Assembly: GCA_046759165.1 (NCBI GenBank)
Contig: JBHIBS010000028.1
Location: forward strand, 1-18,347
Reading direction: 5' to 3'
Length of the DNA stretch: 18,347 nucleotides
Source of the DNA: a bacterium
GTDB taxonomy: Bacteria > UBA6262 > WVXT01
Shown: piece by piece, positions 899 to 18,347 of the stretch
How the letters are laid out: every line of letters begins with the position of its first letter
Position numbering within the stretch: position 1 is the first letter of the stretch
Made by a program: the position numbers and the translations under genes
Notes under the pieces: model-generated
Databases searched by the model: none
What the model was told of the DNA's origin: nothing
What the model saw: only the letters and a program-made list of their open reading frames with translations

Positions 899-1309
899 AT
901 GATTGAGTTTGATTACAGACAAGAGCGGCTTCACACAGGAGAGGTAATATTCAGGCCTATAGCTAAGGTCTATCTTCTTAGATCTAAAAATGAATGGATT
1001 GCTGAATATTTCTATGTAGATTCAGGGGCAGATTATACTTTGATTCCCTATCGAATGGGTCGATTCTTAGGCTTAGAGAAAATAGCATCAGAGGTCAAAG
1101 AGATAGGTGGGATTGGTGGAGTTATTGCGGCAAGATTTGCTCTCGTTCCTATGAAAATAGAGAAGTACCAGTTTAGCTGTACCATTGCCTGGGCACAGAT
1201 TGAGCGTATTCCTTTTCTTTTGGGTAGGGAAAATGTATTTGAGTATTTTGATATAACTTTTAGACAAAAAGAAAGGAAGATTATTTTTATATGGAAAGGA
1301 GAAAAATAA
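899..1309 (+). CDS. Retropepsin-like (clan AA) aspartic protease
   Basis: Catalytic VDSGAD motif, flap-like IGGIGG, and LLGRE motif in a 136-aa single lobe. Confidence 0.85.
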   Translation: MIEFDYRQERLHTGEVIFRPIAKVYLLRSKNEWIAEYFYVDSGADYTLIPYRMGRFLGLEKIASEVKEIGGIGGVIAARFALVPMKIEKYQFSCTIAWAQIERIPFLLGRENVFEYFDITFRQKERKIIFIWKGEK

Positions 1310-1362
1310 ATTCAGTTCTAAGTAACGAGGATCGTCCTTGACGAGAAGTGACATCCTTCCAC

Positions 1363-2613
1363 TCATCTGGGTTGACGGGCCTTTTTCATAGCTTCCACCA
1401 AAGGAAGTTTTATTCCCGATAAAAAACGAATAAGAGCACCTCCACCTGTGCAAACATAGCTTATTTTTGATAAGTTTCCCAGCCGATCTGCCGAAGCTAC
1501 TGTATCCCCACCTCCTATCACTGAGTAGCCCCTAGCTTCACCAATTATCCTCCACAGCTCTTTAGTACCATAAGCACCAATTTCCTCTTCATAAATTCCA
1601 GCCGGACCGTTAACAAATATTGTTCCAGCTTTTTCTATTATCTTTTTATATTTCTTTATGGTGTTAGGACCTATATCTATTATTTGTTTTTCTACTGGCA
1701 GCTTATCAGTAGTTACTTCACCCCTTTTTCCTTCATCATCTACTCCAAAATCTAATGGATAGAAGAGTTTATCCGGATAATCTTTTAGATACTCTTTAGC
1801 TGGCTCAACAAATTTTTCCAGCCCCCGATCGGTAATAAATTTTTCAGTAGGAGAACCCAGTTTCTTACCCAGAGCCTTGTGCATAATAAGGGCGGTAACT
1901 CCAGTAGTTAGAAGATAATCAACAGAGCCTTCAGCCAGCACTTTTCTCATCATTCCAAAAGCATCAGATATTTTTGCTCCACCTAAGAGAAAAACAGAAG
2001 GACGATCAGGATTTTCCAGCACCTTGGTAAGTGTGCTTACTTCCTTATCATAGAGTATACCCGCTGCCGAGGGAAGAAGCTCCTGAAAGGCCACCATACT
2101 GGGTGAGCTGCGGTGAGCTGCCGCAAAAGCATCATTAACGTAGCAATCAACCAGTGGAGCTAGATTCCTTACCAAGTAGGTCTTAGTCATCTCTTCAGGG
2201 CTAAGCTTTACATTGTTTTCAAAAGTAGATACCTCTTCGGTTAGATAGCGGAGATTATCCAAAAGAAGAATCTCACCCTTTTTTAGGTTTTTGATTTTTC
2301 CCCTGGCAGCGGGACCAGCAATGTCATCGATAAACTGAACCTCTTTTTCTATTTTTTGAGAAATTTTCTCGGCATGCTCTTTTAAGGAAACAAGGTTCTG
2401 ATAATCCAGAGTATCTCCCTGATGGGCTATTATTACCAGTTTTGCCCCTGAATCTCTCAGTTTTTTAATAGTGGGAAGACTCTTATCAATTCTATTTTCA
2501 TTTACTATCCTCTTTGTCCTTGGATCAACAGGAGAGTTAATATCTACCCGTAAAAGAGCTGTTTTACCTTGATAATTAAAATCATCGAGGGTTAGATAAT
2601 CGCGTTTGGACAT
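1363..2613 (-). CDS. pgk: Phosphoglycerate kinase family, archaeal-like N-terminus, atypical substrate site
   Basis: RVDINSP, DNLRY, NDAFAAAHR, GGAKISD, NGPAG, GGGDT and TGGGA motifs. HQGD replaces the usual HxGR. Confidence 0.92.
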   Translation of the reverse strand: MSKRDYLTLDDFNYQGKTALLRVDINSPVDPRTKRIVNENRIDKSLPTIKKLRDSGAKLVIIAHQGDTLDYQNLVSLKEHAEKISQKIEKEVQFIDDIAGPAARGKIKNLKKGEILLLDNLRYLTEEVSTFENNVKLSPEEMTKTYLVRNLAPLVDCYVNDAFAAAHRSSPSMVAFQELLPSAAGILYDKEVSTLTKVLENPDRPSVFLLGGAKISDAFGMMRKVLAEGSVDYLLTTGVTALIMHKALGKKLGSPTEKFITDRGLEKFVEPAKEYLKDYPDKLFYPLDFGVDDEGKRGEVTTDKLPVEKQIIDIGPNTIKKYKKIIEKAGTIFVNGPAGIYEEEIGAYGTKELWRIIGEARGYSVIGGGDTVASADRLGNLSKISYVCTGGGALIRFLSGIKLPLVEAMKKARQPR

Positions 2614-2622
2614 AGAAAACTC

Positions 2623-3642
2623 CTATTTTAATCCCAAATATTTATTTGTTAGGCCTACTGCTTCTAGGCGATCTTTTTGCATTTCCATGCAGGCTCTCAC
2701 CCCATCGATGGTTTCCGGTGTAACTACCGCCTCCTGAGGAATATTTACGGCGAACATGATATCTTTTCCACTAAAGCCCACTGTCTCCTCAAAAACCGCG
2801 ATTTCATACATATCACCTCTTGGACGACCCAGGTCTCTGGCATAGCGGAAAAGAGAAGTATTAGAGTTAAATCCATCGGCAATTCTCACCACACGGATGC
2901 GGGGGTGTTTTTTGAATTCTTCAAGCACTTCTTTTTTGGTAATTTCTCTCTTGGGAGTAGCAAGGATAGTGATAATGTGTCCATGTGTTACAGGAGTGTG
3001 CACTAAGATCCCTGTTGCTTTTACATGAGGCATAATTTTCATTAAATCAACCGCCTGATGATTGGGAATGGGATCTACCTTAAGAAGGTCAACCAAGCCG
3101 CGGTGGGTATCAGCCGGGTCAGCCACACGACGGATAATGGTAACCGCTACCTTTTTAACCCCTACTGCTCGGTCCAGACAATCCACTGCCCTTATAAAAC
3201 CAGTGGTATTACAGGAGGTGAGTTTTAAGAAGTTTTTCCCCACACCTTTTTCGTAATTGGCATAACCATGGAAAAATACATCTGCCACCTCATCTTTCTC
3301 TCCACCCTGAAAGATTGCTTTTACATTGTATTTAGCATATATTTCTTTATTCTTTGCCCCAATCCCTGCTGGTGTAGCATCCAGTACTACATCCACTTGC
3401 TTAAGAAGATCGTCCATTGTTCCAGAAACGGGAATTCCGGCAGCTTCCAGATTAGATACCCTATCCCGAATAGCGCAGAAGAGCTTATAGGGCATCCCTT
3501 TTTCATGCAGGGCTCTCACAGCCAGGGTAGGCGCTGCATCAACCACTCCTACTAGTTCCATATCTTCCTGCAGAGCAATTCCATCAGCTAAACGCTGTCC
3601 TATAACCCCATACCCAACAACCCCAACTTTTATTTTCGCCAT
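2623..3642 (-). CDS. gap: Archaeal-type (class II) glyceraldehyde-3-phosphate dehydrogenase homologue
   Basis: GYGVIGQRLAD, FQGGEK, catalytic SCNTTG, IRRVADP, GRPRGDMYEI and QEAVVTPETIDGVRA match class II rather than bacterial class I GAPDH. Confidence 0.9.
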   Translation of the reverse strand: MAKIKVGVVGYGVIGQRLADGIALQEDMELVGVVDAAPTLAVRALHEKGMPYKLFCAIRDRVSNLEAAGIPVSGTMDDLLKQVDVVLDATPAGIGAKNKEIYAKYNVKAIFQGGEKDEVADVFFHGYANYEKGVGKNFLKLTSCNTTGFIRAVDCLDRAVGVKKVAVTIIRRVADPADTHRGLVDLLKVDPIPNHQAVDLMKIMPHVKATGILVHTPVTHGHIITILATPKREITKKEVLEEFKKHPRIRVVRIADGFNSNTSLFRYARDLGRPRGDMYEIAVFEETVGFSGKDIMFAVNIPQEAVVTPETIDGVRACMEMQKDRLEAVGLTNKYLGLK

Positions 3643-3659
3643 TTTATCCTCCCTCTAAG

Positions 3660-4766
3660 TTACATCTTTAAAATAGATTCAACAATAGCATCCCCGACTT
3701 CACTTGTGGCTGATGTTCCTCCCAGATCTTTTGTTCTAACATTACCTTCCTTGAGGACTTTTTTTATTGCTTTCATAACCATCAAGGCAGCCTTTTTCTC
3801 TCCCAACTCCTCCAGCATCATTTGCCCTGCCCAGATAGTAGCTATTGGATCTGCCACATTTTTGCCAGTGTATTTGGGTGCTGAGCCGTGGATTGGCTCA
3901 AACATAGAGATGCCTTCTGGATTAATATTTCCTCCGGGAGCAAGTCCCATACCTCCCTGAATCATCGCCCCTAAATCGGTTATTATGTCACCGAAAAGGT
4001 TAGGAGCAACGATGACATCAAAGAACTCAGGATTCTTAACAAACCACATACATATAGCATCCACAAAGGCAAAATCAGTTTTTACATCCGGATATTGCCC
4101 CGAAATTTTCTTGAATAGTTCATCCCAATAGACCATACTATAATTAAGAGCGTTAGACTTGGTGCAGCAGGTGAGATGTTTCTTTCTTTTTCTTGCCAGC
4201 TCAAAGGAATACTTCATTATTCTCTCTACCCCAATCTGGCTGAATACACCCTCCTGAGTCACTAGCTCCTCAGAATCAGCAAAGACCTTGTTTATCTTAG
4301 CATATATAGCATGCTTAGAATCACCTTTTTTGTACTTACCTCCGATTCCGGTATAAAAACCTTCCGTGTTTTCCCTTACTACTACAAAGTCTATATCTTG
4401 AGGACCTTTATTCTTGAGAGGACAGGGAATACTCTCCAACAGTTTAACCGGCCTAAGATTGACATATTGGTCAAAACCAAAGCGAATCTTTAAAAGCAAG
4501 TCCCTTAAGGAGATATGATCAGGAACCTTGGGATCACCAATAGCACCGAGGTAAATAGCCTCATAATCCTTGAGTTTTTCTAGGCCATCATCAGAGATCA
4601 TTTTTCCTGTCTTTAAATAATATTCACAACCCCAGGGAAAATAGCTAAATTCAAAGGTTATATCTCTTAGTTTTTCACCCACCGCTTCTAGGACTTTAAC
4701 CCCTTCTCTAATTGCTTCTGGCCCAATTCCATCACCTGGAATGACTGCAATTCTATGTTCTCTCAT
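3660..4766 (-). CDS. Isocitrate/isopropylmalate dehydrogenase family, closest in motifs to tartrate/D-malate dehydrogenase (decarboxylating)
   Basis: [34 protein letters not shown]...[15 protein letters not shown] and FEPIHGSAP motifs. Confidence 0.85.
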
Positions 4767-4828
4767 TTTCTACTCCAGTGCCAAAAAGAAAGTCCGTCAA
4801 TTTTTTTGAAAAACCAGGGTGAAAAACT

Positions 4829-5677
4829 TCAGTTAGAGGATAGCAATCTTGTTAAAAAATGAATGGATTGTTCCATAGCTGATAAATCATCAGGTACGGG
4901 GAGCACTTCTGCACAGATGCATCCTAGGTAGTTTATTTTCTTTAAAGAACAATAAACCTCCTTAAAATCTATATGTCCCATGCCTGGAGCGAACCTGTTA
5001 CTGTCAGCAAAATGAATACAACTCAAATACTTTTCTCCCTTTAGAATTGCTTCTCCCAGATTAGGCTCGTCTATATTCATATGAAATGTATCCAGTAATA
5101 TTTTAAAGTTCTCAGCCTTTAATTTTTCTACTAATTCTAGTGCCTCTTCTACTGTGTTTATAAAGTTTGTCTCGTATCTATTTATAGGCTCCAGTGTAAG
5201 AATTACTCCATACTTACAGGCATATTCCAGGCTTTCTTTTATACTATCTAAAGTGGCCTGGTATAACTTGTGGGGCACAGGATGTCGCCAGGCAGTGCCC
5301 TCAAAAGTTCCCCTTATTCCTCCAATAATTACCTGAGCACCCAGTTGAGAGGCAAACCTTATATGTCCTTTTAATCTCTGAACCGTCCTTTTACGTTTCT
5401 CTACCTGTTTAGCACATAAACTGAAACCATCTTTATAATAGGATTGTCCGGTAGCGATGGTGGAAACCTTTAGGTTATTTTCTTTTAATAGGTGGGTTAT
5501 TTTCTCTCTATGTAAAAAATCACTATCTCTTAAACTTAGCTCTACAGCACTAAATCCTAACCGACCAGCATTTTCTATTCCTTCCTCAATTTTGCCTGCA
5601 AAAAGAAGAGGACCAAAACCTGACTTCTCCGGTGATAAGGCAACACTTGGCATCTGGTGACCCATTATTTCGTTCAT
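4829..5677 (-). CDS. TIM-barrel sugar isomerase/epimerase (ketose 3-epimerase / IolO-like)
   Basis: EPINRYE, DTFHMNIDE, HFADSNR.APG.GHIDF and a C-terminal Glu, the usual metal-ligand set. Start codon uncertain. Confidence 0.85.
   Translation of the reverse strand: MNEIMGHQMPSVALSPEKSGFGPLLFAGKIEEGIENAGRLGFSAVELSLRDSDFLHREKITHLLKENNLKVSTIATGQSYYKDGFSLCAKQVEKRKRTVQRLKGHIRFASQLGAQVIIGGIRGTFEGTAWRHPVPHKLYQATLDSIKESLEYACKYGVILTLEPINRYETNFINTVEEALELVEKLKAENFKILLDTFHMNIDEPNLGEAILKGEKYLSCIHFADSNRFAPGMGHIDFKEVYCSLKKINYLGCICAEVLPVPDDLSAMEQSIHFLTRLLSSN
5518..5648. repeat. Direct repeat, copy A (5' part of the epimerase gene)
   Basis: Ungapped 131-nt match to 11233-11363 with 17 mismatches by hand count (about 87%). 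Confidence 0.95.
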
Positions 5678-5724
5678 TTAAAATAAATTACCATCTCCTT
5701 TGACTTTTTTCAAGTAAAAATTAG

Positions 5725-6037
5725 GTTGCCTATCCCGTTATTGTTGCTTTTTCTGAGAAAACTTAACCTAATTTATGCCAGTGGTATTAACATCTGCTAA
5801 TTCAAGCTTACATTTTCCGTTGTGTGCATTAAGGTGGCTGGAGCCGAACACACAGACTCAGTTAGTAATCTCTGTGTATTGACCGATATACATTTTCAAC
5901 AACGTATCTTTGGTATACTTACTTCCTGAGGATTGGAGTCCACTCCTCAAAAGAAAGTATGTTCTCCATGATGCTTAAAGATCAAGCATTTACGACAAAA
6001 AACAGTTTAATTTAGCAACAATAACGGGATACGCTAC
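5725..6037. mobile_element. MITE-like non-autonomous element, 313 bp
   Basis: TIRs GTTGCCTATCCCGTTATTGTTGCT (5725-5748) and AGCAACAATAACGGGATACGCTAC (6014-6037), 22/24 match with the inner 18 bp perfect. Flanked by TAG at 5722-5724 and 6038-6040. No long ORF. Confidence 0.8.
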
Positions 6038-6056
6038 TAGATTTTTTATTATTTTG

Positions 6057-7208
6057 TTAATAATGTCCGTATTTCAATGCTGATTCATATAAAGTTAACA
6101 CATTTTGAATAGGAACCTCGGGCTGAATATTATGCACTGGTGCAAAAATAAATCCTCCACCAGGCTTAAGATCTTCAATTCTTTTTTTTACTTCTTTTTC
6201 AACATCTTCTTGCTTTCCAAATGGCAACACTTCTTGTGTATCACATCCCCCGCCCCAGAATACTATATCCTTACCAAATTCTTCTTTCAATGACTTTGTA
6301 TCATTCATACCTCTCACTGTTGGCTGTATAGGGTTCAATATATCTATACCAATTTCAATTAGATCTGGTATTATTTTTCTAATTGCACCATCTGAGTGTA
6401 AGAGTACTTTTACAATCGCCTTACTCTTAATAAAATCTACCAATTCTTTATGTCTAGGTTTAATCAAATCACGATACATATTGGGAGAAACAATAAGACT
6501 ATCTTGAGTTCCTAAATCATCTCCAATTACAGCTACCTGAACATATCTACCAATCCTAGACAATATAGCATCCCAATATCCAATATGGAACTCTAAAACC
6601 TTGTCCATTACTTTAGCTGCTAAATCTTGGTTAGAAGCCAATAAGCAAAACCATTCTTCAAAACCTACCAGCCAAGCACAATCTTGTAAAACACCTCCAG
6701 CAAATTCTTTCTCTTTCCCAACAGATATAGCATAATCAGTATTTTCATAAAAATACTTAGCCTTTTTATCTATTCCTTCAAATCTTCCTTCATCATAGGG
6801 ATCAGGCCAATTAAATCTTTTCAAACTCTGACTAGTAACTTTCTTTAGTGGATGTTCTACCATATCGAAATACCATCCGTTTTTAGGAAGTCTATATTTT
6901 ATCCCCCATTCATCAACATAAGAATTATCCTCTGGGTTTATTTCTATTTTCCAACTTTTTGGTGGACCAGGATATATTCCTAGAATGTCCCCATGAAGTT
7001 TTTCCAACATTTTTTCACTTATTATTACGGTCTGAAGTGAAAACTGTAATATTTCATCCTCAATGTCATCTTTTATACCAAGCTCTTTCTTTAACTCATC
7101 ATAAACAATTCTATGCATTGACGTTGCCAGCGTTCCCCCTATATCAATTGGAATTCTATCCGGTTCTTTATGATTTAAAGCTAAAATGACTCTTTCCCTA
7201 GAATTCAT
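6057..7208 (-). CDS. Uroporphyrinogen decarboxylase / MtaA-CmuA superfamily protein
   Basis: MNSRERV..AL.HKEPDRIPID, GDDLGTQ, HSDG, LNPIQP, FWGGGCDTQ and GGGFIFAPVHNIQ motifs. Confidence 0.85.
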   Translation of the reverse strand: MNSRERVILALNHKEPDRIPIDIGGTLATSMHRIVYDELKKELGIKDDIEDEILQFSLQTVIISEKMLEKLHGDILGIYPGPPKSWKIEINPEDNSYVDEWGIKYRLPKNGWYFDMVEHPLKKVTSQSLKRFNWPDPYDEGRFEGIDKKAKYFYENTDYAISVGKEKEFAGGVLQDCAWLVGFEEWFCLLASNQDLAAKVMDKVLEFHIGYWDAILSRIGRYVQVAVIGDDLGTQDSLIVSPNMYRDLIKPRHKELVDFIKSKAIVKVLLHSDGAIRKIIPDLIEIGIDILNPIQPTVRGMNDTKSLKEEFGKDIVFWGGGCDTQEVLPFGKQEDVEKEVKKRIEDLKPGGGFIFAPVHNIQPEVPIQNVLTLYESALKYGHY

Positions 7209-7219
7209 AATGGCCTAAT

Positions 7220-7261
7220 TAGCACAGGTACCCTTCTGAGAATATAAGGGTACCTGTGCTA
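7220..7261. promoter_or_regulatory. Perfect 16-bp stem-loop downstream of the binding-protein gene
   Basis: TAGCACAGGTACCCTT, 10-nt loop, AAGGGTACCTGTGCTA. No U-tract follows on the minus strand. Confidence 0.85.
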
Positions 7262-7309
7262 TAACCTTCTCTGCTTGAAACTAAATTAACAACAACATAT
7301 TATACTGGC

Positions 7310-8239
7310 TTAATCCAGCCATTGATCCACATTCTCTGCCGTAATCATCGCAGTAGGAACGTCAATCTCTTTAGATACTGGATACCCCTTAAGCGCCATA
7401 TGAACTTGCAATACTGCCCAATATGCCTGGGCCTCTGGTACCTGAGCTGTGGTTACTATCATCCTACCCATTTTGATAGCTTCTATTGCATCAGCATCCC
7501 CATTAAATCCACCGACTAATACCCCTGCGAGTCGACCTGCAGCATCCATTGCTTCTATTGCACCAATAGCCATCGGATCATTAGCTGCAATTACAGCATC
7601 TATATCATCAAATTGCTGAAGTAGATTCTCCATAACTTGCAAGCCATCTTCATAAACAAAATTAGCCGTCTGGGAAGCGAGAACAGTAACATTGGATTCA
7701 CTAACAGCAGCATCAAATCCAGCTTTTCTATCGGTGGCTGTCTGATTTCCAGGTGTACCTTCAAGTATTATTAAGTTGCCTTTATTCCCCATTTTATCAA
7801 TTAAATATTTGGCAACTTCATAGGCTGCACTAAAATTACTAGCACCAGCCCAGCCAACAACTTCTCCACCTTCGGCTTTAGTATTAGATAATCCAACAAG
7901 TATTCCCGCTTCGTTAGCCTTTTCTATTCCAGGAACAATACCCCTGCTATCTGCTGGAACTACGATGATACCATCGACTTGCTGTATTATGGCATTTTCC
8001 ATAATACGAATCTGCTCTTCAACATCGTAGGGTTTTACTGGAGCTGTACCTTCTATTTCAATACCTAGGTCTCGACCAGCTTCTTTTGCACCTTCTATCA
8101 TCCTTTGCCAGAAAGGATGCTGCATTCCTTTAACGATAAAAACAAATTTCATCTTTTCTTTAGCAGCTGCTAAAGGCGAAAAAGATACACCTACTAAACA
8201 CATTGTTATTACCAAGAGCCATAATAATGTTTTTTTCAC
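7310..8239 (-). CDS. Sugar ABC transporter substrate-binding protein (RbsB family)
   Basis: HPFWQRM..GA, ANDPMAIGA and GFNG motifs plus a signal peptide. AGGAG precedes GTG at 8239 (ORF track start 8272). Confidence 0.9.
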   Translation of the reverse strand: MKKTLLWLLVITMCLVGVSFSPLAAAKEKMKFVFIVKGMQHPFWQRMIEGAKEAGRDLGIEIEGTAPVKPYDVEEQIRIMENAIIQQVDGIIVVPADSRGIVPGIEKANEAGILVGLSNTKAEGGEVVGWAGASNFSAAYEVAKYLIDKMGNKGNLIILEGTPGNQTATDRKAGFDAAVSESNVTVLASQTANFVYEDGLQVMENLLQQFDDIDAVIAANDPMAIGAIEAMDAAGRLAGVLVGGFNGDADAIEAIKMGRMIVTTAQVPEAQAYWAVLQVHMALKGYPVSKEIDVPTAMITAENVDQWLD

Positions 8240-8462
8240 TTTCTTGCTCCTTTGCTTGATGATATTGTTCATTTTCCCGTGAAAGCTCCCAAAAAGAGAA
8301 ATTAACCTTTCAACACTTTTCTCTTAAGAAAGCTTTCCTTTGTCTCAGCTAACGGCCTGCCTGGTTTTCACCTCCCCCTGGCCTTATTTTTAGCTTTTCC
8401 CTTACCAAAGATCTAACTTCATAACTAATTGTTAGCAAATTTTTTTGTCAAGAACCCCTTAG

Positions 8463-9416
8463 TTAACTACTTAAACCTAATGTTTTTCTTTTTAATTTTA
8501 AGTTTTCAGTCAAAGTTTTTATTGTTATCATGATTAATATTAATCCTCCTACAGTAAATCTTTGCCAGAGAGGGGAAACACTCATTAAATTCATACCATT
8601 CATAATAACAGTAATAGTCAAAGCACCAATAGCTGTTCCAATTAAATTTCCTTCTCCTCCTCCCAACGATGCTCCTCCTATTATCACTATTGCAATAGCA
8701 TCCAAGGGAAAGCTTGTTCCAATCATAGGCGATGCAGTGTTTAACCTAGCTGTATAAAGAAGTCCAGCAAATGCAGACATTAAACCACTAAGCATATAAA
8801 CTAATACTGTTACTTTCTTTACATTTATACCTACAAGTCTAGCTGACTCAACATTTGAACCTATAGCAAATATGTTTACCCCAAATGCGGTAAATTCCAG
8901 TAATGTATAAAAAATTAATAAAAATAACATACTAAAAATAATTGGCACTGGTATCTCAAAAAGGTACCCAGCACCGATAAAACGAAATCCAGGTCCAAAA
9001 CCAAAAATTGGCCTTCCTCGCAATATTATATAAACAACTCCTCTCGCAATAAACATCATTGCAAAAGTAACAATAAATGGTGGGATTTTTAGATAAGAAA
9101 CCATAGCTCCATTAGACATACCACAGATTATTCCGATACATAGAGCAGTCAAAACACCAAAAACAATAGGTAAATTACTCTTTAACACCATTGCACCAAT
9201 ACAAGAAGAAAGAGCAAGTACAGCTCCGTTTGAAAGATCAATTCCTCCTGTTAAGATAACAAGAGTCATGCCAATACCAAGTACAAACAAAAGAGATGTT
9301 TGACGTAATATATTTATTAAGTTAGTAAGTCTTGCAAAATTATTATTTAAAATAAAAATTAAAAAAGATATAAACACTAATAAACCAAAACGGATGATAA
9401 TATCAAATTTTTTCAA
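8463..9416 (-). CDS. Sugar ABC transporter permease (RbsC family)
   Basis: GGIDLS, IPPFIVT, AIGSN.ESARLVGI and IIGGASLGGGEG motifs; hydrophobic. Confidence 0.92.
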   Translation of the reverse strand: MKKFDIIIRFGLLVFISFLIFILNNNFARLTNLINILRQTSLLFVLGIGMTLVILTGGIDLSNGAVLALSSCIGAMVLKSNLPIVFGVLTALCIGIICGMSNGAMVSYLKIPPFIVTFAMMFIARGVVYIILRGRPIFGFGPGFRFIGAGYLFEIPVPIIFSMLFLLIFYTLLEFTAFGVNIFAIGSNVESARLVGINVKKVTVLVYMLSGLMSAFAGLLYTARLNTASPMIGTSFPLDAIAIVIIGGASLGGGEGNLIGTAIGALTITVIMNGMNLMSVSPLWQRFTVGGLILIMITIKTLTENLKLKRKTLGLSS

Positions 9417-9436
9417 AATTCATATCCAATCAAATT

Positions 9437-10399
9437 TTAAGTTCTTTTTATTAACCTGAACATATTTAAAGACATACCAATGATTAGAAGAAACCCAATT
9501 CCAACATATTGCCAAGCAGTGCTTAAACCTAGAAGGCTAAGCCCATTTATCAATATAGTTATTGTAAAACCCGAAAAAACTGCAAAACCAGGATGACCTT
9601 TTCCACCAAAAAAACTAATGCCAGCTATAGCAGCTGCTGCTATAGCTTCAAACTCACGGCCAAAACCAATAGTAGGATTTCCACTAGCAATTCTTGATGT
9701 AGTAATAATACTCGCAACTCCAGCAAAAGCAGCGCATATGATATATGCCATTATTTTAAAAAAATTAATCCTAACCCCCGCTAAACGAAGAGATTCTTCA
9801 TTATTTCCTACACCCCATATATAAGTTCCAAAAGATTGAAAATTAAATAACCATATTATGAAACACAATAGAATTAGAATTATCCAAAAGGGTACAGGTA
9901 GCCCGATAAATTCCTCTTTCGCAATAGCATTAAACCAATTCTTATCCCAATAAAGAGTCAGGCCACCAGAAAATACAAGTGCCAGACTACTTGCTATTCC
10001 CATTGTGCCTAGAGTAACAATAAATGGTGGTAGTTTTAATGTTGAGGCAAAAATGCCATTTAAAAACCCAATCCCACAACCAATTAAAATTCCAATAAAG
10101 ATTGAAAAAATAATACTAAAACCATTTGCCAAAAAAATAGCTATTACTATACTCACTAAAGAAATAATTGAACCTACTGAAAGATCAATACCATTAGTTA
10201 GCATCACTATTGACATCCCTAAAGCGATTATTGATAGTGAACTACCTTGCAGAAGAATATTTTTAAAATTATTTAAACTGAGAAAATTCTTAGTCGTAGT
10301 TGAAAATATAATAATTAATATTATAAAAATATATATAGTACCTGGAATATTATATAATAATATGTTTTTATACTTTTTATACACAATTACTTTCATCAT
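9437..10399 (-). CDS. Sugar ABC transporter permease (RbsC family)
   Basis: GIDLSVG, LPPFIVTLG, GNNEESLRLAGV and GISFFGGKG motifs. Confidence 0.92.
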   Translation of the reverse strand: MMKVIVYKKYKNILLYNIPGTIYIFIILIIIFSTTTKNFLSLNNFKNILLQGSSLSIIALGMSIVMLTNGIDLSVGSIISLVSIVIAIFLANGFSIIFSIFIGILIGCGIGFLNGIFASTLKLPPFIVTLGTMGIASSLALVFSGGLTLYWDKNWFNAIAKEEFIGLPVPFWIILILLCFIIWLFNFQSFGTYIWGVGNNEESLRLAGVRINFFKIMAYIICAAFAGVASIITTSRIASGNPTIGFGREFEAIAAAAIAGISFFGGKGHPGFAVFSGFTITILINGLSLLGLSTAWQYVGIGFLLIIGMSLNMFRLIKRT

Positions 10400-10451
10400 T
10401 ATATCCTAACATTATATTCCAACATAATATAGCTACGGACAATTATTAAAC

Positions 10452-11198
10452 TTATTCAAGCCCAAACATTTTCTCCACTACTTCTTTCATTGTCAGATTC
10501 TTGCTTTCTTTATCCATTACCTTTTTACCAGACCTAAGAACTACTATTCTAGTAGCAGTTCTAAAAATGCTTTCTAACCTATGCGAGATGAAAATTATTG
10601 AAATACCTTTGCTTTTAAGATTTAATATAGTATCTTCGATAATTTTTAATTCTTTAACAGCTAATCCAGCAGTAGGTTCATCAAGAATGAGTAACCTTGG
10701 ATTAAAAAACATTGAACGTGCTATAGCAACAGCTTGACGTTGTCCCCCAGATAAATCGGAAACTCTTCTCTTGACTGAATCAAAATTGATTTCCGTTAAC
10801 TTTAAGACTTCCCAAGTATTCTTGATCATACTATTTTTGTTTAATAATGGAAGAAAACCTAAAATTTTTTTAGTTAATAGACGTCCTAAAAAAATGTTGC
10901 TATAAATAGGTAAATTATCAACTAATGCAAATGTTTGATAAACTGTCTCTATTCCTAAATTTCGTGAATCTGCAGGATTAGTTATTTTTTGCTCATCTCC
11001 ATTTAAAAAAATTTTACCTGAATCTGCTTTAATTGCTCCACTTAATACTTTAATTAAAGTTGATTTACCAGCTGCATTGTCCCCCACAAGACCAACTATC
11101 TCATTATGCATAACATCAAAATCAACACCTTTTAAGGCTTCAACATGACCGTAACTCTTTCTAATATTCTCCATTCTTACAAAAGGCTGCTTGGCCAT
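10452..11198 (-). CDS. Sugar ABC transporter ATP-binding protein (single domain)
   Basis: Walker A GDNAAGKST, signature LSGGQ, Walker B LILDEPT, H-loop SHRL. Confidence 0.95.
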   Translation of the reverse strand: MAKQPFVRMENIRKSYGHVEALKGVDFDVMHNEIVGLVGDNAAGKSTLIKVLSGAIKADSGKIFLNGDEQKITNPADSRNLGIETVYQTFALVDNLPIYSNIFLGRLLTKKILGFLPLLNKNSMIKNTWEVLKLTEINFDSVKRRVSDLSGGQRQAVAIARSMFFNPRLLILDEPTAGLAVKELKIIEDTILNLKSKGISIIFISHRLESIFRTATRIVVLRSGKKVMDKESKNLTMKEVVEKMFGLE

Positions 11199-11218
11199 AT
11201 TAGTTCCCTTAGAATTTG

Positions 11219-11383
11219 CTATGATGTATCAGAATCACTATCTCTTAAACTCAGCCCTACAGTACTGAATCCTAACTGAGCAGCATTTTTTATTCCTTCT
11301 TCAATATTACCGGCAAAAAGAAGAGGCCCACAACCAGTCTTTTCCGGTGATAAAGCAACACTTAAGGCAAAAGCATTATTTAT
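11219..11383 (-). pseudogene. Truncated 5' copy of the epimerase gene (direct repeat, copy B)
   Basis: INNAFALSVALSPEKTGCGPLLFAGNIEEGIKNAAQLGFSTVGLSLRDSDSDTS*. GGAGG lies 7 nt upstream of ATA, probably a mutated ATG. Confidence 0.9.
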
Positions 11384-11453
11384 TTCCTCTCCTCCAACCT
11401 TACAGGGCCCTTTCTTTTCATCTCGGTCCTCACGCCCTTAAGCTACATTCTTC

Positions 11454-12278
11454 TTACAATTGAATGTTCAGCAGTCTGGCTGCATTATTTCCCAGAATAT
11501 CCGTTTTGTCTTCTTCGCCAAGAAAATCAAATCGCTTAACTAAAAAATTCTGAGATTTGATATAATAATCGGGTGTATGGTGACCAAAAAGAGGAAGGTT
11601 CATAAAGGGCCCTTCGGAGCCCCAAAGTAACCTTTGGGGACCTATAACTTCCACTAAATTTTTCATAATTCTTCCACACAATCCTCTCTTTTTAAAAGCA
11701 TTTTCTATATAATCCAAGAAAGTTATATCCACCCACACATTAGGAGCTGAATAAGCAACTGCCAAAAATTTGTCACACCAGGGAAAACCTCCATGGCACA
11801 TAATGACCTTGAGCTTGGGAAATCGTGTTACAACATCATCTATATAAATAGGACTATTATATTTTAAGTACTGTCTCTGAAGAGCTTTAACACCTGTGTG
11901 AATCATTACAGGAATATTCAATTCCATACATTTTTCGTAAACAAGATCCAAACGCGAATCATTAGGGTAGAAGCCAGCATGAGGATATAATTTCGCGCCT
12001 CTTAATCCCACTTTTTTCACTGCTCGTTCAACTTTCAAATGAGGATTAGATCTATGAGGATGAACCGAGGCGAAACCAACCAGTCGATCCGCATACTTTT
12101 GGCAGAAAGAGGCTACTTCATCATCTTCAAAATTTGTTAAAGCAAAAGTACCGTGATCACACCCCAGAATTATGGATTTATCTATACCTCCTTTATCCAT
12201 TCCAACTATAAATTCTTCTGGTGAATATCTCTCATTCGCGTTCTTATATTCCACATGAGCGTGAATATCTATTATCAT
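11454..12278 (-). CDS. Amidohydrolase family protein (Amidohydro_2-like)
   Basis: IIDIHAH, GAKLYP, PVMIHTG, HGG, WGSEGP and ILGNNAARLL motifs. Confidence 0.85.
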   Translation of the reverse strand: MIIDIHAHVEYKNANERYSPEEFIVGMDKGGIDKSIILGCDHGTFALTNFEDDEVASFCQKYADRLVGFASVHPHRSNPHLKVERAVKKVGLRGAKLYPHAGFYPNDSRLDLVYEKCMELNIPVMIHTGVKALQRQYLKYNSPIYIDDVVTRFPKLKVIMCHGGFPWCDKFLAVAYSAPNVWVDITFLDYIENAFKKRGLCGRIMKNLVEVIGPQRLLWGSEGPFMNLPLFGHHTPDYYIKSQNFLVKRFDFLGEEDKTDILGNNAARLLNIQL

Positions 12279-12324
12279 AATTTTTGTAAGTGAAATATTT
12301 CAAAAAGCTCTCGTTAATAATTGA

Positions 12325-13161
12325 TTATGATTCTTCTAAAAGTTGTATTAAATATCTTCGACTATTTTCTATCATTCTCTGACTTACTTCAAGTGGATCT
12401 TGTCCCTCTGTCTCGTACGAAAGTACTCCCTCATAGTTATTTTGCTTAAGGATTCGAAGACATTCTTTTAAATTCACCTCACCTTGTCCCAGTGTTACCG
12501 CTCTTCTCCCAACCACATCTTTGATATGTACATGCTTCACATAATGGGCAACCGGAATCAAGGTTGCCACTTCATCTCCTTTTTTTGCACCATCTAACTT
12601 CCAGGCATAACCTTCACGAGTTGTGCCTACGTAGTCACCTCTGTGTGGATTGGCTGTGTCAAAGTTAACTCCCATCCACTTTGAAGAAACCAATGAAAGT
12701 ATCTTTGGTAATCCCCCTGGACTCAGGGAGATACTCCCGTGGGTTTCTATAGCCAGGTAGATATTTTCAACTTCTGCCTTTTCTATTAATTTCTCCAATC
12801 GAGGTTGCAAAACCTCCAAACCCTCCTCTTCTGTCATTCCTTCCGGCAGCCTCCCTTCACCTGTGAGAACTACAGGTATTTCTGCAGCTTTTGCCCAAAC
12901 AATAGCCTGATGAATATCTTTTACTGCGCGCTTATCCGTAATTAGTTCCCGGTGTGTCCCTATTGCAGAGACTCCCTTGAAACCAAAGTTGTTAATCTTC
13001 TCTTTAAATCTTATTGGGTCATCCTTATAAGGGTCTGCGTGAGGACACCAGGAGAGGTTCCCCTCAACCTCCACATACTCATATCCCGCATTTGCAATTC
13101 TTTCTAGTGCGGCCTCCAGCGGATACTTCCGGAAATCTACTGTATTGCATCCAATTTTCAT
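12325..13161 (-). CDS. TIM-barrel sugar phosphate isomerase/epimerase family
   Basis: GYEYVEV, AIETHG, NFDTAN, HVHIKD, LGQGEVN and SYETE motifs. GGAGG favours the ATG at 13161. Confidence 0.85.
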   Translation of the reverse strand: MKIGCNTVDFRKYPLEAALERIANAGYEYVEVEGNLSWCPHADPYKDDPIRFKEKINNFGFKGVSAIGTHRELITDKRAVKDIHQAIVWAKAAEIPVVLTGEGRLPEGMTEEEGLEVLQPRLEKLIEKAEVENIYLAIETHGSISLSPGGLPKILSLVSSKWMGVNFDTANPHRGDYVGTTREGYAWKLDGAKKGDEVATLIPVAHYVKHVHIKDVVGRRAVTLGQGEVNLKECLRILKQNNYEGVLSYETEGQDPLEVSQRMIENSRRYLIQLLEES

Positions 13162-13244
13162 TTTGTCTGCCTCCAAAATCAGGTAATTACTTTCCTTCCA
13201 GTCGCTCCTTTCTTACATTTCTTAGAATTCTCTGGCATACGATC

Positions 13245-13997
13245 CTAGCTGTTCTTATTTCTTCCTACTCCCATCATATGATCCACGATTTCTTCGCGGG
13301 TTACCTCATCTTTCTTCTTGCAAGCTACCTTTCGGCCAGTTCTTAAGACCATAATCCGATCCGATACTGTAAAGACATCTTCCAGCCTGTGACTTATGAG
13401 TATGATAGAGTGTCCCTTTGCTTTTAAGTCTTTAATGACCAACAGTAGTCTCTTAACGGCTTCTACGCCTAAAGGAGCGGTAGGCTCGTCCATAATGATG
13501 ACTCCTGGACTCTCTATAAGCGTTCTCCCTATTGCTACTTCAGCACGTTGTCCTCCGGAGAGAAGCCTAACTTTTCTTCGTTCATCAATAGCTATACTTA
13601 AAGATTTTAGGATCCCGCGGGTTCGTCTTCGCATCTTACGAATATCTCGAAACTTTATTCCCAAAACTGAGGTCTCAAGTTCCCTCCCCAGGAACATATT
13701 CTCGGTAACAGTAAGATCTTCAACTAAGGCTAGATCCTGGAAGACCATCCAGATTCCTAGGTTTCTTGCATCTTTTGGAGAATGAATTTTCACTTCCTGC
13801 CCTTTGACAATGATTTTTCCCTCATCAGGAGAATACACCCCGCTTAAGATTTTCATCAACGTTGATTTCCCTGCAGCGTTATCTCCAACCAGGCCCAACA
13901 CTTCTGGAGAGTCTAGGTCAAGATCCACATTACTCAATGCTTGTACTGAGCCAAATCTTTTAGATATATCCCTCATCTCTAGTAAAAAATTTCCCAT
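13245..13997 (-). CDS. Sugar ABC transporter ATP-binding protein (single domain)
   Basis: GDNAAGKST, LSGGQ, IIMDEPT and SHRL motifs. Confidence 0.95.
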   Translation of the reverse strand: MGNFLLEMRDISKRFGSVQALSNVDLDLDSPEVLGLVGDNAAGKSTLMKILSGVYSPDEGKIIVKGQEVKIHSPKDARNLGIWMVFQDLALVEDLTVTENMFLGRELETSVLGIKFRDIRKMRRRTRGILKSLSIAIDERRKVRLLSGGQRAEVAIGRTLIESPGVIIMDEPTAPLGVEAVKRLLLVIKDLKAKGHSIILISHRLEDVFTVSDRIMVLRTGRKVACKKKDEVTREEIVDHMMGVGRNKNS

Positions 13998-14125
13998 CTA
14001 CTACTCCGTGCTTGTATGACTGCGTAGTCCTAAGGCTTGCTTCCTTTAAGACTCAACTTTTGCTCTAGGAGTATCTTTCTGAGCCGGATTTTTTTGTTGC
14101 GTCCCTGGGAGAATTCCCTAAAACA

Positions 14126-14145
14126 AGGAGAGGATGCATGGCCTG
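14126..14145. repeat. Inverted-repeat arm in the 3' UTR of the binding-protein gene
   Basis: AGGAGAGGATGCATGGCCTG is the reverse complement of 15152-15173 apart from a 2-nt indel. Confidence 0.85.
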
Positions 14146-14157
14146 CTTTAGGCTTTG

Positions 14158-15123
14158 TTACTTCATAAACTCTCCGGTGATCACCGCGTAGCTTTTTTGT
14201 AGCTCATCGGTATCTACCACACCTACACCCGAGTTAATATACTCCGGTAGTTTCTTCCCTTCCAGTACTTCCAAAGCTTTGATGACAAAAAGTCGTCCCA
14301 TTCGTTCCGGATATTGAACAACGTCAGCGCCCAATTTTCCTTGGTAAACTGCTTCGATTGCATCGGGTGATCCGTTGTATCCAAGGGTAATAACATCATC
14401 TCGATCGCCAGTACGAAGAGCCTGAATTCCTCCCATAGCCATTTCGTCGTTGAGGAAGAAAATTCCTTGCAAATCCGGAAATCCTGTTATCATGTCCTCG
14501 GTAACTTTCAGACCCAAGTCTCTCCTCCAATTAGCCGCAAGAATCACGCGAATTTCTACATCGGGATATAGCTTCAAGGCCTCAACGAACCCCTTTTTCC
14601 TCAATATATTTACATAAGAAGGGGTTCCCTCTACCATTCCGATCTTGCCTTTCTTACCTATTGCTTCAGCCAACCACATACCACCGTAGTATCCACCAAG
14701 ATAGTTGTCAGTGGAAATATAAGTCTCGTCCCCATCCCAGTTCGCTTTGGTGTCTACAGAAATGATGGGAACTCCTGCTGCTTTAACTTTTTTCAAAGCC
14801 GGGATTATAGCGTCCGAATCCACAGCAGCATACCCTACCACGTCTACCCCTCTTGCAATGAAGTCCTCAAGAAGTCTGACCTGACTCTCGATATCGGTGC
14901 TATACCTTACCCCTAAAGTAATTATCTCCACTCCCGTCTTCTTGGCTTGTTCTTCAGCCGCTTTCCTCAGAGTAGCATAGAACGGATTGCCTAGATGCTC
15001 GAGGGTCAATCCCAAAACAACCTTCTTCTCTGCTGCGCCGGCACTTCCTGAAACTACACCGCTCATTACTACCCCTAGCGTCAAAGTCAAGATCAACATC
15101 AACACTATTACCCTTTTTTTCAT
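14158..15123 (-). CDS. Sugar ABC transporter substrate-binding protein (RbsB family)
   Basis: NPFY, ISTDNY.GG, ANWRR, NDEMAMG and GYNG motifs; signal peptide; GGAGG RBS. Confidence 0.92.
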   Translation of the reverse strand: MKKRVIVLMLILTLTLGVVMSGVVSGSAGAAEKKVVLGLTLEHLGNPFYATLRKAAEEQAKKTGVEIITLGVRYSTDIESQVRLLEDFIARGVDVVGYAAVDSDAIIPALKKVKAAGVPIISVDTKANWDGDETYISTDNYLGGYYGGMWLAEAIGKKGKIGMVEGTPSYVNILRKKGFVEALKLYPDVEIRVILAANWRRDLGLKVTEDMITGFPDLQGIFFLNDEMAMGGIQALRTGDRDDVITLGYNGSPDAIEAVYQGKLGADVVQYPERMGRLFVIKALEVLEGKKLPEYINSGVGVVDTDELQKSYAVITGEFMK

Positions 15124-15151
15124 TACTTTCCTCCGTTACTTAATTTCTGGA

Positions 15152-15173
15152 CAGGCCATGCACCTCCTCTCCT
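15152..15173. repeat. Inverted-repeat arm in the 5' UTR of the binding-protein gene
   Basis: CAGGCCATGCA(CC)TCCTCTCCT, complementary to 14126-14145. Confidence 0.85.
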
Positions 15174-15174
15174 A

Positions 15175-15203
15175 ATTATATTAACCTGTCTGTCTATTGC
15201 CTA
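15175..15203 (-). promoter_or_regulatory. Candidate internal sigma70 promoter for the binding-protein gene
   Basis: TAGGCA (15203-15198), 17 nt, TATAAT (15180-15175). Confidence 0.55.
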
Positions 15204-16196
15204 TTTGTATTTTATCCCCAGTAGCCAAGCAGGATTTCTCTTTAGCATAATATCAAGCGATTCTTTACCAATTCCTGAAGCTATTAGCAATCTGATGTAG
15301 AGTTTCATTCCTTCCACTGGATGAGGGTTTAACATGGAACCAAAATCTGTCGCCAGAACTGTCTTGTCTACCCCTACTTTTTCGATAATCTCTAAGAACT
15401 CTGTTCTATCACAGGTAGGATTATTAAAGTGAGGAATAGCACTATACAGATACAAGCCTATGTATGCTCCCAATTTAGCCATTTCGACTTGCTGGCCTGG
15501 TGAGGCTCTATTAACACTCCACTGGGGGTGAGTTATCAGAATTTTTTTTACTCCAAATTTTTTCGCCTCTTCGGTAATGATCATTCTCTCCTTCGTGGAG
15601 GTATGACAGAGGTCTAAAATAATGTCGTAATCCACAATAATCTTGAATATCTCCTTGAGTTCTGGACGGATCTCATCATTGCCCGTTAGAACCTCTATTC
15701 CTCCTTGCTCACCCAAAACTTTTTTGTGATGCGCAGAATCATGACTTGGAAGCCACACAATCTTAGCACCAAGTTTAGCGGAAGTCTTTACGGCTATAGG
15801 ATTTAGCCCGCCCACCGAGTAATTAAGGACTATCCCCCCAAATACATTAAAAGCATGAGGAGAAGTGGTAGTATGATTTTCGGCGTAGTCATCTATTACC
15901 TGTTGAACAAAATAAGCCATGGGAGCCGTATCAGAATACATACTTTTACAAACAATTGCTCTCATGCCAGCATCATATGCTCGCTTTGCAATTTCTGCAA
16001 AATCCCATCCTGTATCCACTAAAGCTTCTGGATATCCATGAACATGAATATCAATAGCACCTTTCATAACCTGAGCTACATCTTCCTCTGTAATTCTTTG
16101 CCTGGCACCATATTTCTCTACTGTTGAATAACTCAACTTGGCTCTCTCTTTCCAAACCGGTTGTAAAGATTCCTCTTCATATTTTTCTTTTCTCAT
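15201..16196 (-). CDS. DUF6282-like amidohydrolase-fold protein
   Basis: GAIDIHVH, AGMRAIVCKS, FGGIVLN.SVGGLNP, KIVWLPS, ITHP, ATDFG and NPAWLLG motifs. Confidence 0.75.
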   Translation of the reverse strand: MRKEKYEEESLQPVWKERAKLSYSTVEKYGARQRITEEDVAQVMKGAIDIHVHGYPEALVDTGWDFAEIAKRAYDAGMRAIVCKSMYSDTAPMAYFVQQVIDDYAENHTTTSPHAFNVFGGIVLNYSVGGLNPIAVKTSAKLGAKIVWLPSHDSAHHKKVLGEQGGIEVLTGNDEIRPELKEIFKIIVDYDIILDLCHTSTKERMIITEEAKKFGVKKILITHPQWSVNRASPGQQVEMAKLGAYIGLYLYSAIPHFNNPTCDRTEFLEIIEKVGVDKTVLATDFGSMLNPHPVEGMKLYIRLLIASGIGKESLDIMLKRNPAWLLGIKYK

Positions 16197-16197
16197 T

Positions 16198-17687: not shown

Positions 17688-18347
17688 TTAAGGCACGAAC
17701 ACAACCTTAAGCGCATCTGGTCCATAAGCCTTTTTCATGGCTTCTTTAGCCTGTTTTAGATGGAAACAATGAGTGATTAATTTGCTCCATGGAAAAGTTT
17801 TCCTATTCTGTATCATCATTTCCATTGCTGTGTAATATCCATCATGAGGATGATTAGTATTTCCAATAAGAAGAACATTTTTCGCTGCAATATGACGGTG
17901 TACATTCAGTGCTACATTACCAGTATCTACAAAATTTCCTGTCTCACAGTAAGTTCCTCCCCGACGAAGCATGCGAAGGCCTACATTCAAAACTTCCGGA
18001 CGCCCAACTGCCTCTACAACCATATCTGCTCCCCTTCCTTCTGTTTCATCCCGGATATATTGCACTAGTTCATCACCTGACATCTTGGAAACATTTATCG
18101 CCAGATCGGTCCCAAACTCTTTAGCTAACTCTAATCTGTAATTTATTGTATCAAGACCAATAATTTTACCTGCCCCTAGCAAACAGGCTTTTGCAACCAT
18201 CATCATACCTACGGCACCAAGCCCCTGAATAATCACCGTATCCCCAAAACCGAATCCCCTGGCATCAACTTGGGAATACATCTTAGCCCGATCTAAAATA
18301 GCAGTAACCACAAAGAGCTCTGTCAAAGCGGTTTCCTCAACAGTCAA
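17688..18347 (-). CDS. Zn-dependent medium-chain alcohol/polyol dehydrogenase, 5' end outside the window
   Basis: QGLGAVG Rossmann motif, GRGADMVVEAVG and LITH.F.L motifs. Confidence 0.88.
   Translation of the reverse strand: MTVEETALTELFVVTAILDRAKMYSQVDARGFGFGDTVIIQGLGAVGMMMVAKACLLGAGKIIGLDTINYRLELAKEFGTDLAINVSKMSGDELVQYIRDETEGRGADMVVEAVGRPEVLNVGLRMLRRGGTYCETGNFVDTGNVALNVHRHIAAKNVLLIGNTNHPHDGYYTAMEMMIQNRKTFPWSKLITHCFHLKQAKEAMKKAYGPDALKVVFVP

Follow-up and report, generated by a model that had tools for sequence, protein, structure and literature searches.

The window analysed here is the whole 18,347-nt contig JBHIBS010000028.1 (contig C28 of the bacterial assembly GCA_046759165.1; lineage UBA6262, WVXT01), the minus strand of which carries adjacent genes for a paralogue of glyceraldehyde-3-phosphate dehydrogenase of type II (GAPDH-II) and a phosphoglycerate kinase (PGK) paralogue. 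On balance, this pair probably constitutes a catabolic substrate-level-phosphorylation module, for which D-malate semialdehyde would be the most likely substrate. Taken together, the conserved residues of both proteins, their distribution and their neighbours point to a carboxylate analogue of glyceraldehyde 3-phosphate (G3P), with D-malate semialdehyde as the likelier candidate and tartrate semialdehyde as the weaker one. The pair, the codon of one diagnostic residue and the gene next upstream are the following:

1363 to 2613, minus strand: PGK paralogue of the HQGD type, 416 aa, matching Pfam PF00162 over its full length
2413 to 2415, minus strand: GAT codon of D67, the residue that stands where PGKs have the phosphate-binding Arg65
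2623 to 3642, minus strand: type II GAPDH paralogue, 339 aa (NF003251, TIGR01546)
3660 to 4766, minus strand: gene 17 nt upstream of that for GAPDH, its product homologous to tartrate dehydrogenase / D-malate dehydrogenase (decarboxylating) (TIGR02089); abbreviated TTC below

Active sites of the two paralogues

The PGK paralogue aligns with PF00162 at 365.5 bits over model positions 1-378 of 379, and its best match in the PDB is the P. horikoshii enzyme 2cun (299.1 bits), which has HQGK where the window protein has HQGD. In the translation the motif forms part of the run I62-A-H64-Q-G-D67-T-L-D-Y, and two bacterial PDB chains aligned at the position of D67 read HLGK and HLGR. According to PMC7729029, Arg65, Arg122 and Arg170 of PGK hydrogen-bond the 3-phosphate of 3-phosphoglycerate (3-PG), His62 touches the bridging oxygen, and Asp23 and Asn25 touch the 2-OH. 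In the window PGK this basic patch of three arginines (65, 122 and 170) is incomplete, with D67 in place of Arg65, and R122 and R168 retained. The comparison of 118 PGKs of the HQGD family with 105 representatives of the Arg/Lys type (archaeal-type) placed Asp at this position in 99% of the former, whereas the latter have Arg in 103 cases and Lys in two. Further positions specific to the family, besides D67, are T68, an inserted L69, D70, Y71, N73, L74, the inserted stretch S129-T-F-E132, M142, Y146, A175, Q177, S216 and W354, while R22, D24, N26, R41, H64, Q65, R122, H167, R168, K214 and the glycine motifs are common to both groups. Conserved within the family are the residues for the carboxylate or acyl end and the 2-OH (R22, D24, N26, R41), together with those of the nucleotide side and the hinge (K214, E342, G368, G369, G391, G392, A393). 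Asp follows HQG in all but one of the best 120 PGK homologues (Ser in one, no motif match in one), and HQGDTLDY is present in 114 of them. This pattern of loss and retention means that the PGK would still bind a distal anion, in a pocket that has been remodelled.

The GAPDH paralogue is placed with ample scores in the type II models (NF003251, 408.9 against a cut-off of 185; TIGR01546, 311.5 against 232.9), with 2czc as best PDB match (260.3 bits), and contains the motifs V33-V-D35-A-A-P38, T-S-C144-N-T-T and P193-N-H-Q-A-V-D199. The four solved archaeal GAPDHs considered (1cf2, 2czc, 2yyy and 1b7g) have PSHHGPD in three cases and PSHHAKD in one, and all of them have Lys at the position of D35. 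Among 118 homologues of the window protein, D35, S143, C144, N145, R171, Q196 and H220 never vary, and R172 and H195 each occur in 117; residue 194 is Ser (66 sequences), Asn (50) or Thr (two), so that the motif of the family is P[S/N]HQ. For the GAPDH of M. fervidus, PMC12041015 describes Ser139, Asn141, Arg167, His193 and His194 as one anion site and Arg167 with Arg168 as the site of the substrate phosphate, and gives the Lys as a mark of NADP-dependent enzymes. The window GAPDH has therefore kept its catalytic Cys, the base His and both arginines of the substrate-anion site, and has replaced the His-His of the second anion site and the Lys for the 2'-phosphate of NADP. Since D35 takes the place of this Lys in all 118 homologues, the cofactor determinant has switched to the NAD type, and its invariance fits the use of NAD. 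The residue patterns of the two proteins therefore suggest that the chemistry and a site for an anionic tail have been kept, and that the site has been rebuilt.

Most of what a preliminary description of this DNA, made from the letters and translations, had said about the motifs is borne out by these comparisons. It had recognised the class II motifs of the GAPDH; AHQGDT with D67 in the PGK, where GAT is indeed read at 2415-2413; the membership of the HxGR arginine in the basic patch for the 3-phosphate; the Asp that follows the second Rossmann strand in VVDAAP, interpreted as an NAD-type residue; and the intact catalytic Cys and ATP-site motifs. It had also contrasted PNHQAVD with the archaeal PSHHGPD, and here the motif is present and the change of His to Gln is universal in the family, whereas the change of Ser to Asn is not family-wide.

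Extra copy, phylogeny and linkage

The preliminary description had named the presence of canonical gap and pgk genes elsewhere in the genome as decisive, and both are found on contig C65, which carries a type I GAPDH (TIGR01534, 441.8 bits; cut-off 367.2) and after it a PGK of the HLGRP type (PF00162, 530.8 bits) and secG. The PGK paralogue is an extra copy in all five other carrier genomes tested as well, each with a canonical PGK (539-584 bits) in addition to the paralogue (349-370 bits). The PGK tree was built with FastTree from 150 representatives at 50% identity, 123 of which were of 370-470 aa and were kept (27 dropped), together with eight family members and the canonical PGK of this genome (132 rows). 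The rows with HQGDT form a single clade of 11 with a support of 100, which lies within an Arg-less clade of 19 rows (support 98), itself nested among archaeal-type PGKs with HQ[G/S]R. Beside this clade, a sister clade (P0243, P0245, P0252, P0255, P0307, P0359 and P0371) consists of archaeal-type PGK paralogues that also lack the Arg (HQGDP, HQGSD, HQGSM, HQGGD), and these may be further repurposed PGKs. A separate observation concerns fused relatives (P0386, P0384, P0296, P0247, P0376 and P0315), in which PGK is joined to a PfkB kinase, to a 4Fe-4S ferredoxin domain, to a cytidylyltransferase or to a second PGK in tandem.

A search of the 11 closest relatives (eight genomes of the same family, two of the same order and one of the same class) did not recover the module, and for this reason its horizontal acquisition is likely; the best matches in more distant genomes show 35-39% identity, as ordinary PGKs do. 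The contig fits the bin in composition (GC 0.389 against 0.42 +/- 0.024; tetranucleotide r = 0.934, the 17th lowest of 77), and nothing points to a binning error.

The two genes are closely linked, with 9 nt between the stop of the GAPDH gene and the start of the PGK gene and a GGAG that overlaps the stop. A scan with the back-translated HQGDTLDY motif, taking one genome per species, recovered at least 120 loci, which by their record titles come from Bacillota, Spirochaetota, Chloroflexota, Actinomycetota, Gammaproteobacteria, Victivallales/Kiritimatiellia, Poribacteria, Synergistaceae and others (codes of the form Lnnn denote loci of other genomes). A PGK homologue is present in all 120 loci listed, and in 69 of the 72 listed loci with at least 1 kb of upstream sequence the gene immediately upstream, in the same orientation, is GAPDH-II; it is not in L044 (a fragment), L056 and L063. 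The module can be defined by HQGD(T/I)LDY and the inserted STFE in the PGK and by an adjoining upstream GAPDH-II with P[S/N]HQ, all of which the window has. Cultured carriers include Clostridium magnum DSM 2767, Flexilinea flocculi TC1, Lucifera butyrica and Clostridium sediminicola. In a metagenome-assembled genome (MAG) of Dehalococcoidales, GAPDH-II and the HQGD PGK are a single in-frame open reading frame (ORF) of 761 aa (P0391; L005:2278-4563, minus strand), a fusion for which an error in sequencing the stop codon may be responsible; about 850 bp downstream of it, at L005:374-1429, lies a gene for a D-isomer-specific 2-hydroxyacid dehydrogenase, which could be a third way to handle a D-2-hydroxy acid product.

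Neighbours were counted by clustering the ORFs and annotating representatives in the 59 loci with at least six ORFs, the window included. A subunit of a split transketolase occurs in 23 of these loci and at least two of IolG, IolE, IolD and IolB in 21. No IolC kinase scored above its cut-off in any of five genomes tested that have both Iol genes and the module (0/5). A class III aminotransferase is present in seven loci, mostly with a sigma-54 activator and accompanied by a LarA-family gene, malic enzyme or both. This LarA-family gene, found in 28 of the 59 loci, has the malate racemase Mar2 (6d6z) as its best match (430.9 bits, the next chain reaching 285.8), and is referred to as Mar (Mar2-type LarA racemase); malic enzyme occurs in 15 loci and often accompanies Mar. 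A TTC homologue is present in seven loci, and the window is of this kind. The direct count of loci with both Mar and TTC is zero of 59, and in a tree of 54 PGKs from these loci the TTC-linked ones are dispersed over at least four positions among those linked to Mar, a scatter which suggests that Mar and TTC may be two alternative exits for the same product. In L068, IolE, IolD and IolB, transketolase and TTC are united in one locus.

A scan of metagenomes added 10 related loci, of which L137, L140 and L142 are informative. The order IolO-like gene, TTC, GAPDH-II, PGK is kept in the close relatives L142 and L140, of which the latter has a PGK that is 85% identical to that of the window, and L137 has a Zn-dependent alcohol dehydrogenase (Zn-ADH) 69% identical to that of the window, an IolO-like gene and a true IolE (419 bits), followed by the pair.

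Two other contexts were noted. In a Spirochaetales locus (L019:9965-15556), genes for an Ldh_2 dehydrogenase, a creatininase-family protein, a fucose-isomerase-like protein, a URO-D-like protein and an HpcH/HpaI aldolase lie directly upstream of GAPDH-II, PGK and Mar; the aldolase is a possible aldolase-based source of the aldehyde, and the URO-D-like gene, in L019 three genes upstream of the module, falls in the same cluster as the window gene at 6057-7208. In MAGs of gut and rumen Clostridia (L015, L016, L058, L072, L077 and L080), the module is accompanied by HI0933-like and FAD-dependent flavoproteins, an ECF S component, a fructosamine-kinase-like gene and a LURP-one-related protein, and neither a Mar nor a TTC homologue was found in the fetched DNA of these six loci.

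Proposed pathway and competing readings

For the pathway, we infer substrate, direction and all of the chemistry from the observations above. A transketolase would cut a 2-keto sugar acid to yield a four-carbon acid-aldehyde, in many genomes starting from the IolB product, 5-dehydro-2-deoxy-D-gluconate. Read from its other end, this compound is a 2-ketose, with by its name the D-threo configuration that transketolase needs. Removal of the two-carbon ketol would leave OHC-CHOH-CH2-COO-, predicted from the structures to be of D configuration. In some genomes the aldehyde would be supplied by the class III aminotransferase; from 4-amino-3-hydroxybutyrate, an omega-aminotransferase would produce this aldehyde as well. 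The GAPDH-II paralogue would then convert (3R)-3-hydroxy-4-oxobutanoate (D-malate semialdehyde), the analogue that has -CH2-COO- where G3P has -CH2-O-PO3, together with NAD+ and phosphate into the acyl phosphate (malyl phosphate), from which the PGK paralogue would form D-malate and ATP with ADP. The TTC homologue would catalyze the oxidative decarboxylation of D-malate to pyruvate, and in other bacteria a Mar2-type racemase and malic enzyme would take D-malate onward. D-malate needs either a racemase with an L-malic enzyme or a decarboxylating D-malate dehydrogenase, in agreement with the two alternative neighbours, and a carboxylate, being smaller and singly charged, fits the loss of one Arg of three and the inserted loops.

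The proposal of the preliminary description that the pair is a repurposed module interconverting an aldehyde, an acyl phosphate and an acid plus ATP, and not housekeeping glycolysis, is thus supported by the extra copy, the clade-wide Asp and the linkage, although the function itself would still be a prediction. Its expectation that HQGD-type PGKs form one clade and travel with this GAPDH in catabolic clusters agrees with the tree and with the linked loci, and the pair does end a bacterial sugar-catabolic cluster, the genes upstream of it encoding sugar-type ABC transporters, homologues of TIM-barrel sugar epimerases/isomerases, metal hydrolases and a Zn-ADH. Regarding the substrate, the suggestion of one different from G3P is retained, with a non-phosphorylated carboxylate analogue favoured, whereas glyceraldehyde, neutral tetroses, erythrose 4-phosphate and sulfonates, which it had listed, are not.

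Several points weigh against D-malate semialdehyde. The function of the module is in every member a prediction, and gene neighbourhood is circumstantial evidence. The conserved Arg residues cannot separate a carboxylate from a phosphate, and the change of His to Gln in the GAPDH affects the anion site where inorganic phosphate should still be bound. Neither Mar nor TTC occurs in the DNA fetched for 24 of the 59 loci, and the gut-Clostridia context (L015, L016, L072) has flavoproteins in their place. In this genome, which is 92% complete, there was no KduI/IolB match, tblastn recovered neither IolE nor IolB, and the only IolD-like hit was 24% identical; the reading of the window as a simple inositol cluster was therefore rejected for this genome. 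The putative exit enzyme at 3660-4766 (best PDB match 3flk, 357.6 bits) lies just above the cut-off of TIGR02089 (471.9 against 470.4) and falls short of that of NF006048 (436.5 against 501), and its family acts on tartrates too. In addition, the IolO-like and IolM-like genes of the window fit a keto-uronate chemistry that would lead to tartrate semialdehyde.

The latter points favor the same module acting on tartrate semialdehyde (2,3-dihydroxy-4-oxobutanoate), which a transketolase would release from a 5-keto-hexonate or keto-uronate and the pair would convert into tartrate and ATP, with TTC as a tartrate dehydrogenase/decarboxylase. The TM0416/IolO-like epimerase, the IolM-like Zn-ADH and the lactonase-type hydrolases of the window, the failure to find IolE, IolD and IolB in this genome and the name tartrate dehydrogenase carried by the best models of the 3660-4766 neighbour are in line with it, and the cleavage of 5-keto-D-gluconate by transketolase has been proposed (PMC7970118). 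Nevertheless, tartrate semialdehyde, although the main rival, is considered unlikely, since the TTC-linked PGKs are interleaved with those linked to Mar and malic enzyme, IolE/D/B, transketolase and TTC are combined in L068, the substrate-site residues of the PGK are invariant across contexts, and L032 pairs the IolO-like and Zn-ADH homologues with Mar and malic enzyme, which points to malate. An uncharged or sulfonated substrate, such as glyceraldehyde/glycerate, a free tetrose or sulfolactaldehyde/sulfolactate, would explain the loss of one basic residue in the PGK; sulfolactaldehyde is also an isostere of G3P, and a transketolase-based sulfoglycolysis exists. Two Arg of the PGK and the Arg-Arg site of the GAPDH are, however, invariant, which argues for an anionic tail of the substrate; the Mar2-type racemase, malic enzyme and the beta-decarboxylating dehydrogenase require a second carboxylate, and the contexts are inositol- or amino-acid-like, with no sulfoquinovose or sulfite genes among the families annotated. 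This is the least probable of the explanations considered.

Taken at their database names, the two proteins would be a plain G3P dehydrogenase and 3-PG kinase of archaeal type, gained by horizontal transfer as a second glycolytic or gluconeogenic pair. That both proteins pass the family models with their catalytic residues intact, and that the pair was not found in the 11 closest relatives, which makes a transfer likely, would be expected in that case. This is nonetheless very improbable in view of the clade-wide replacement by Asp of one of the three phosphate-binding Arg, the insertions, the status of the pair as an extra copy in every genome tested (this one and five others) and its position in catabolic clusters beside malate-handling enzymes. 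A bacterial type II GAPDH, CDQ83_07070 of P. thermosuccinogenes, the membership of which in the present subfamily is unverified, showed no activity on G3P with either NAD or NADP in PMC6543838, where it is also remarked that there is no functional evidence for type II GAPDHs in bacteria.

The reading of the pair as a D-malate semialdehyde module can be set beside known systems. With the archaeal type II GAPDHs (1cf2, 2czc, 2yyy, 1b7g) and PGK (2cun) it shares folds, families, the catalytic Cys and His, the Arg-Arg site, acyl-phosphate chemistry and the ATP site; it differs from them in the Asp for the NADP Lys and the His-Gln for His-His of the GAPDH, in the Asp for Arg/Lys and the two insertions of the PGK, and in being bacterial, an extra copy and located in catabolic operons. 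The nearest characterized enzymes to the 3660-4766 product are the P. putida tartrate dehydrogenase/decarboxylase (3flk, its best PDB match) and D-malate dehydrogenase (decarboxylating), relative to which an exit role behind a GAPDH/PGK-like module would be new; the substrate of the window protein may be D-malate, meso-tartrate or L-tartrate. The LarA gene at 28 of 59 loci is of the type of Mar2 from Thermoanaerobacterium thermosaccharolyticum (6D6Z), a species which itself carries an HQGD PGK (P0113). The genome of the window differs from Mar2 systems in lacking a Mar2 orthologue, with the TTC homologue instead; its only LarA homologue, on contig C45, was considered as a partner and rejected, being 31-36% identical to the Mar cluster and located amid housekeeping genes. 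For Mar2, a Km of 0.38 mM for L-malate is given in PMC7583248, in the available portion of which the authors leave the in vivo role open; Table S1 there places the PGK COG beside three of 18 group-4 LarA homologues, without comment in that portion, and malic enzyme beside six of 41 group-6 members.

The part of the module loci that concerns inositol can be compared with the Bacillus subtilis-type pathway as follows. The IolJ step of the myo-inositol pathway is given in PMC13311982. At 21 of 59 module loci the IolG/E/D/B half is shared as homologues, whereas the IolC/J/A half is apparently replaced by transketolase, GAPDH-II, PGK and the malate enzymes, in line with the lack of an IolC match above the cut-off in the five genomes mentioned above. 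In B. subtilis-type catabolism of myo-inositol, the enzymes are IolG, E, D, B, C, J and A. Finally, a synthetic malyl-phosphate pathway has been engineered, which reportedly acts on the other carboxyl group, its semialdehyde being the 2-hydroxy-4-oxo isomer. It involves the same malate, malyl phosphate and malate semialdehyde chemistry as the module, and differs in being man-made from aspartate kinase and aspartate-semialdehyde dehydrogenase and in running in the reductive direction (PMC5481828 and PMC12104201). According to its authors, nature has no pathway to their product, and within the literature searched malyl phosphate appears in engineered pathways only (PMC5481828, PMC12104201). No description of a malate-semialdehyde/malyl-phosphate route or of the module was found in the literature searched, subscription journals being outside its coverage.

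A wider proposal, held tentatively and with the balance tipped slightly the other way, is that the pair could be the core of a natural and widespread counterpart of lower glycolysis that works on carboxylates, leading from D-malate semialdehyde through malyl phosphate to D-malate and ATP, by which anaerobes would ferment cyclitols, sugar acids and hydroxy-amino acids without sugar phosphorylation, which would give orphan malate racemases their role, and which would be fed here by the Zn-ADH, the TM0416-like epimerase, the metal hydrolases and a transketolase on contig C69 in replacement of IolE/D/B. If the reading of the pair as a D-malate semialdehyde module is right, it would represent a new substrate-level phosphorylation reaction and the natural counterpart of the engineered malyl-phosphate pathway, a kinase-free end for inositol and related catabolism, and a physiological role for the Mar2-type nickel-pincer malate racemases. 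Hundreds of such genes are annotated as glycolytic GAPDH and PGK, with the consequence of distorted metabolic reconstructions of MAGs and gut anaerobes.

Feeder genes and remaining content of the window

Fifteen of the larger ORFs of the window are co-directional on the minus strand, and the last four are tightly spaced. Besides the genes listed above, the window contains:

4829 to 5677, minus strand: TM0416/IolO-like keto-sugar-acid 3-epimerase homologue, TIM barrel (NF041099, 271.2, below the cut-off of 300)
6057 to 7208, minus strand: URO-D-family protein, with the Pfam URO-D match on residues 169-377 only
7310 to 17220, minus strand: two sugar-type ABC transporter sets with enzymes interleaved, from family-model matches
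11454 to 12278, minus strand: Amidohydro_2 protein, within the transporter region
12325 to 13176, minus strand: AP_endonuc_2 protein, within the transporter region
15201 to 16196, minus strand: DUF6282 protein, amidohydrolase-like, within the transporter region, with no curated NCBIfam assignment
17688 to 18347, minus strand: Zn-ADH, best matching the IolM (scyllo-inosose 3-dehydrogenase) model below threshold, with the N-terminal ~165 aa lost at the contig end

The IolO-like gene, the product of which has 2zvr (TM_0416) as best PDB match (190.1 bits), is probably the first of a four-gene unit that ends with the PGK gene; it occupies the same position in L140 and L137, and a homologue is present in L032. 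A scan of positions 900-7400 for promoters and terminators gave 15 promoter-like sites against a shuffle mean of 17.9 and two terminator-like sites against 4.7, and hence no excess.

From these genes, the window most likely holds a non-orthologous feeder route that would end in a transketolase cut and supply either the deoxy aldehyde (on the way to malate) or the hydroxy aldehyde (on the way to tartrate), and the transketolase of this genome for that route likely lies on its contig C69. This contig (L132:2186-5641) encodes an HTH-cupin regulator, the N- and C-terminal subunits of a transketolase (TK-N and TK-C) and a creatininase-family protein. Its TK-C is closest to the module-linked transketolases of the PGK subclade to which the window belongs (50% for L047, 48% for L041), and its creatininase-family protein is 40% identical to that of L032. 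The latter locus comprises malic enzyme, Mar, transketolase, the creatininase-family gene and homologues of the IolO-like epimerase, the Zn-ADH (same cluster) and the binding protein W7 of the window, with the creatininase-family gene between the transketolase and the IolO-like and Zn-ADH homologues. Contigs C69 and C28 may abut, since C69 ends in the start of a new ORF (seven codons), C28 ends inside the Zn-ADH gene and the gene order matches that of L032; for the join itself, neither an overlap between the two contigs nor a bridging contig was found.

The AP_endonuc_2 protein at 12325-13176 was considered as IolE and rejected, with 25 bits and no meaningful similarity. The URO-D-family protein at 6057-7208, the first ~170 residues of which have no match and which has no curated NCBIfam assignment, is a possible, sequence-predicted member of the pathway. 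The two transporter sets are broken up by enzyme genes and are not compact operons, and the ABC ATPases at 10452-11198 and 13245-13997 (minus strand) are single-domain proteins of ~250 aa, which match only the first half of the ~500-aa models of the RbsA/XylG/AlsA type.

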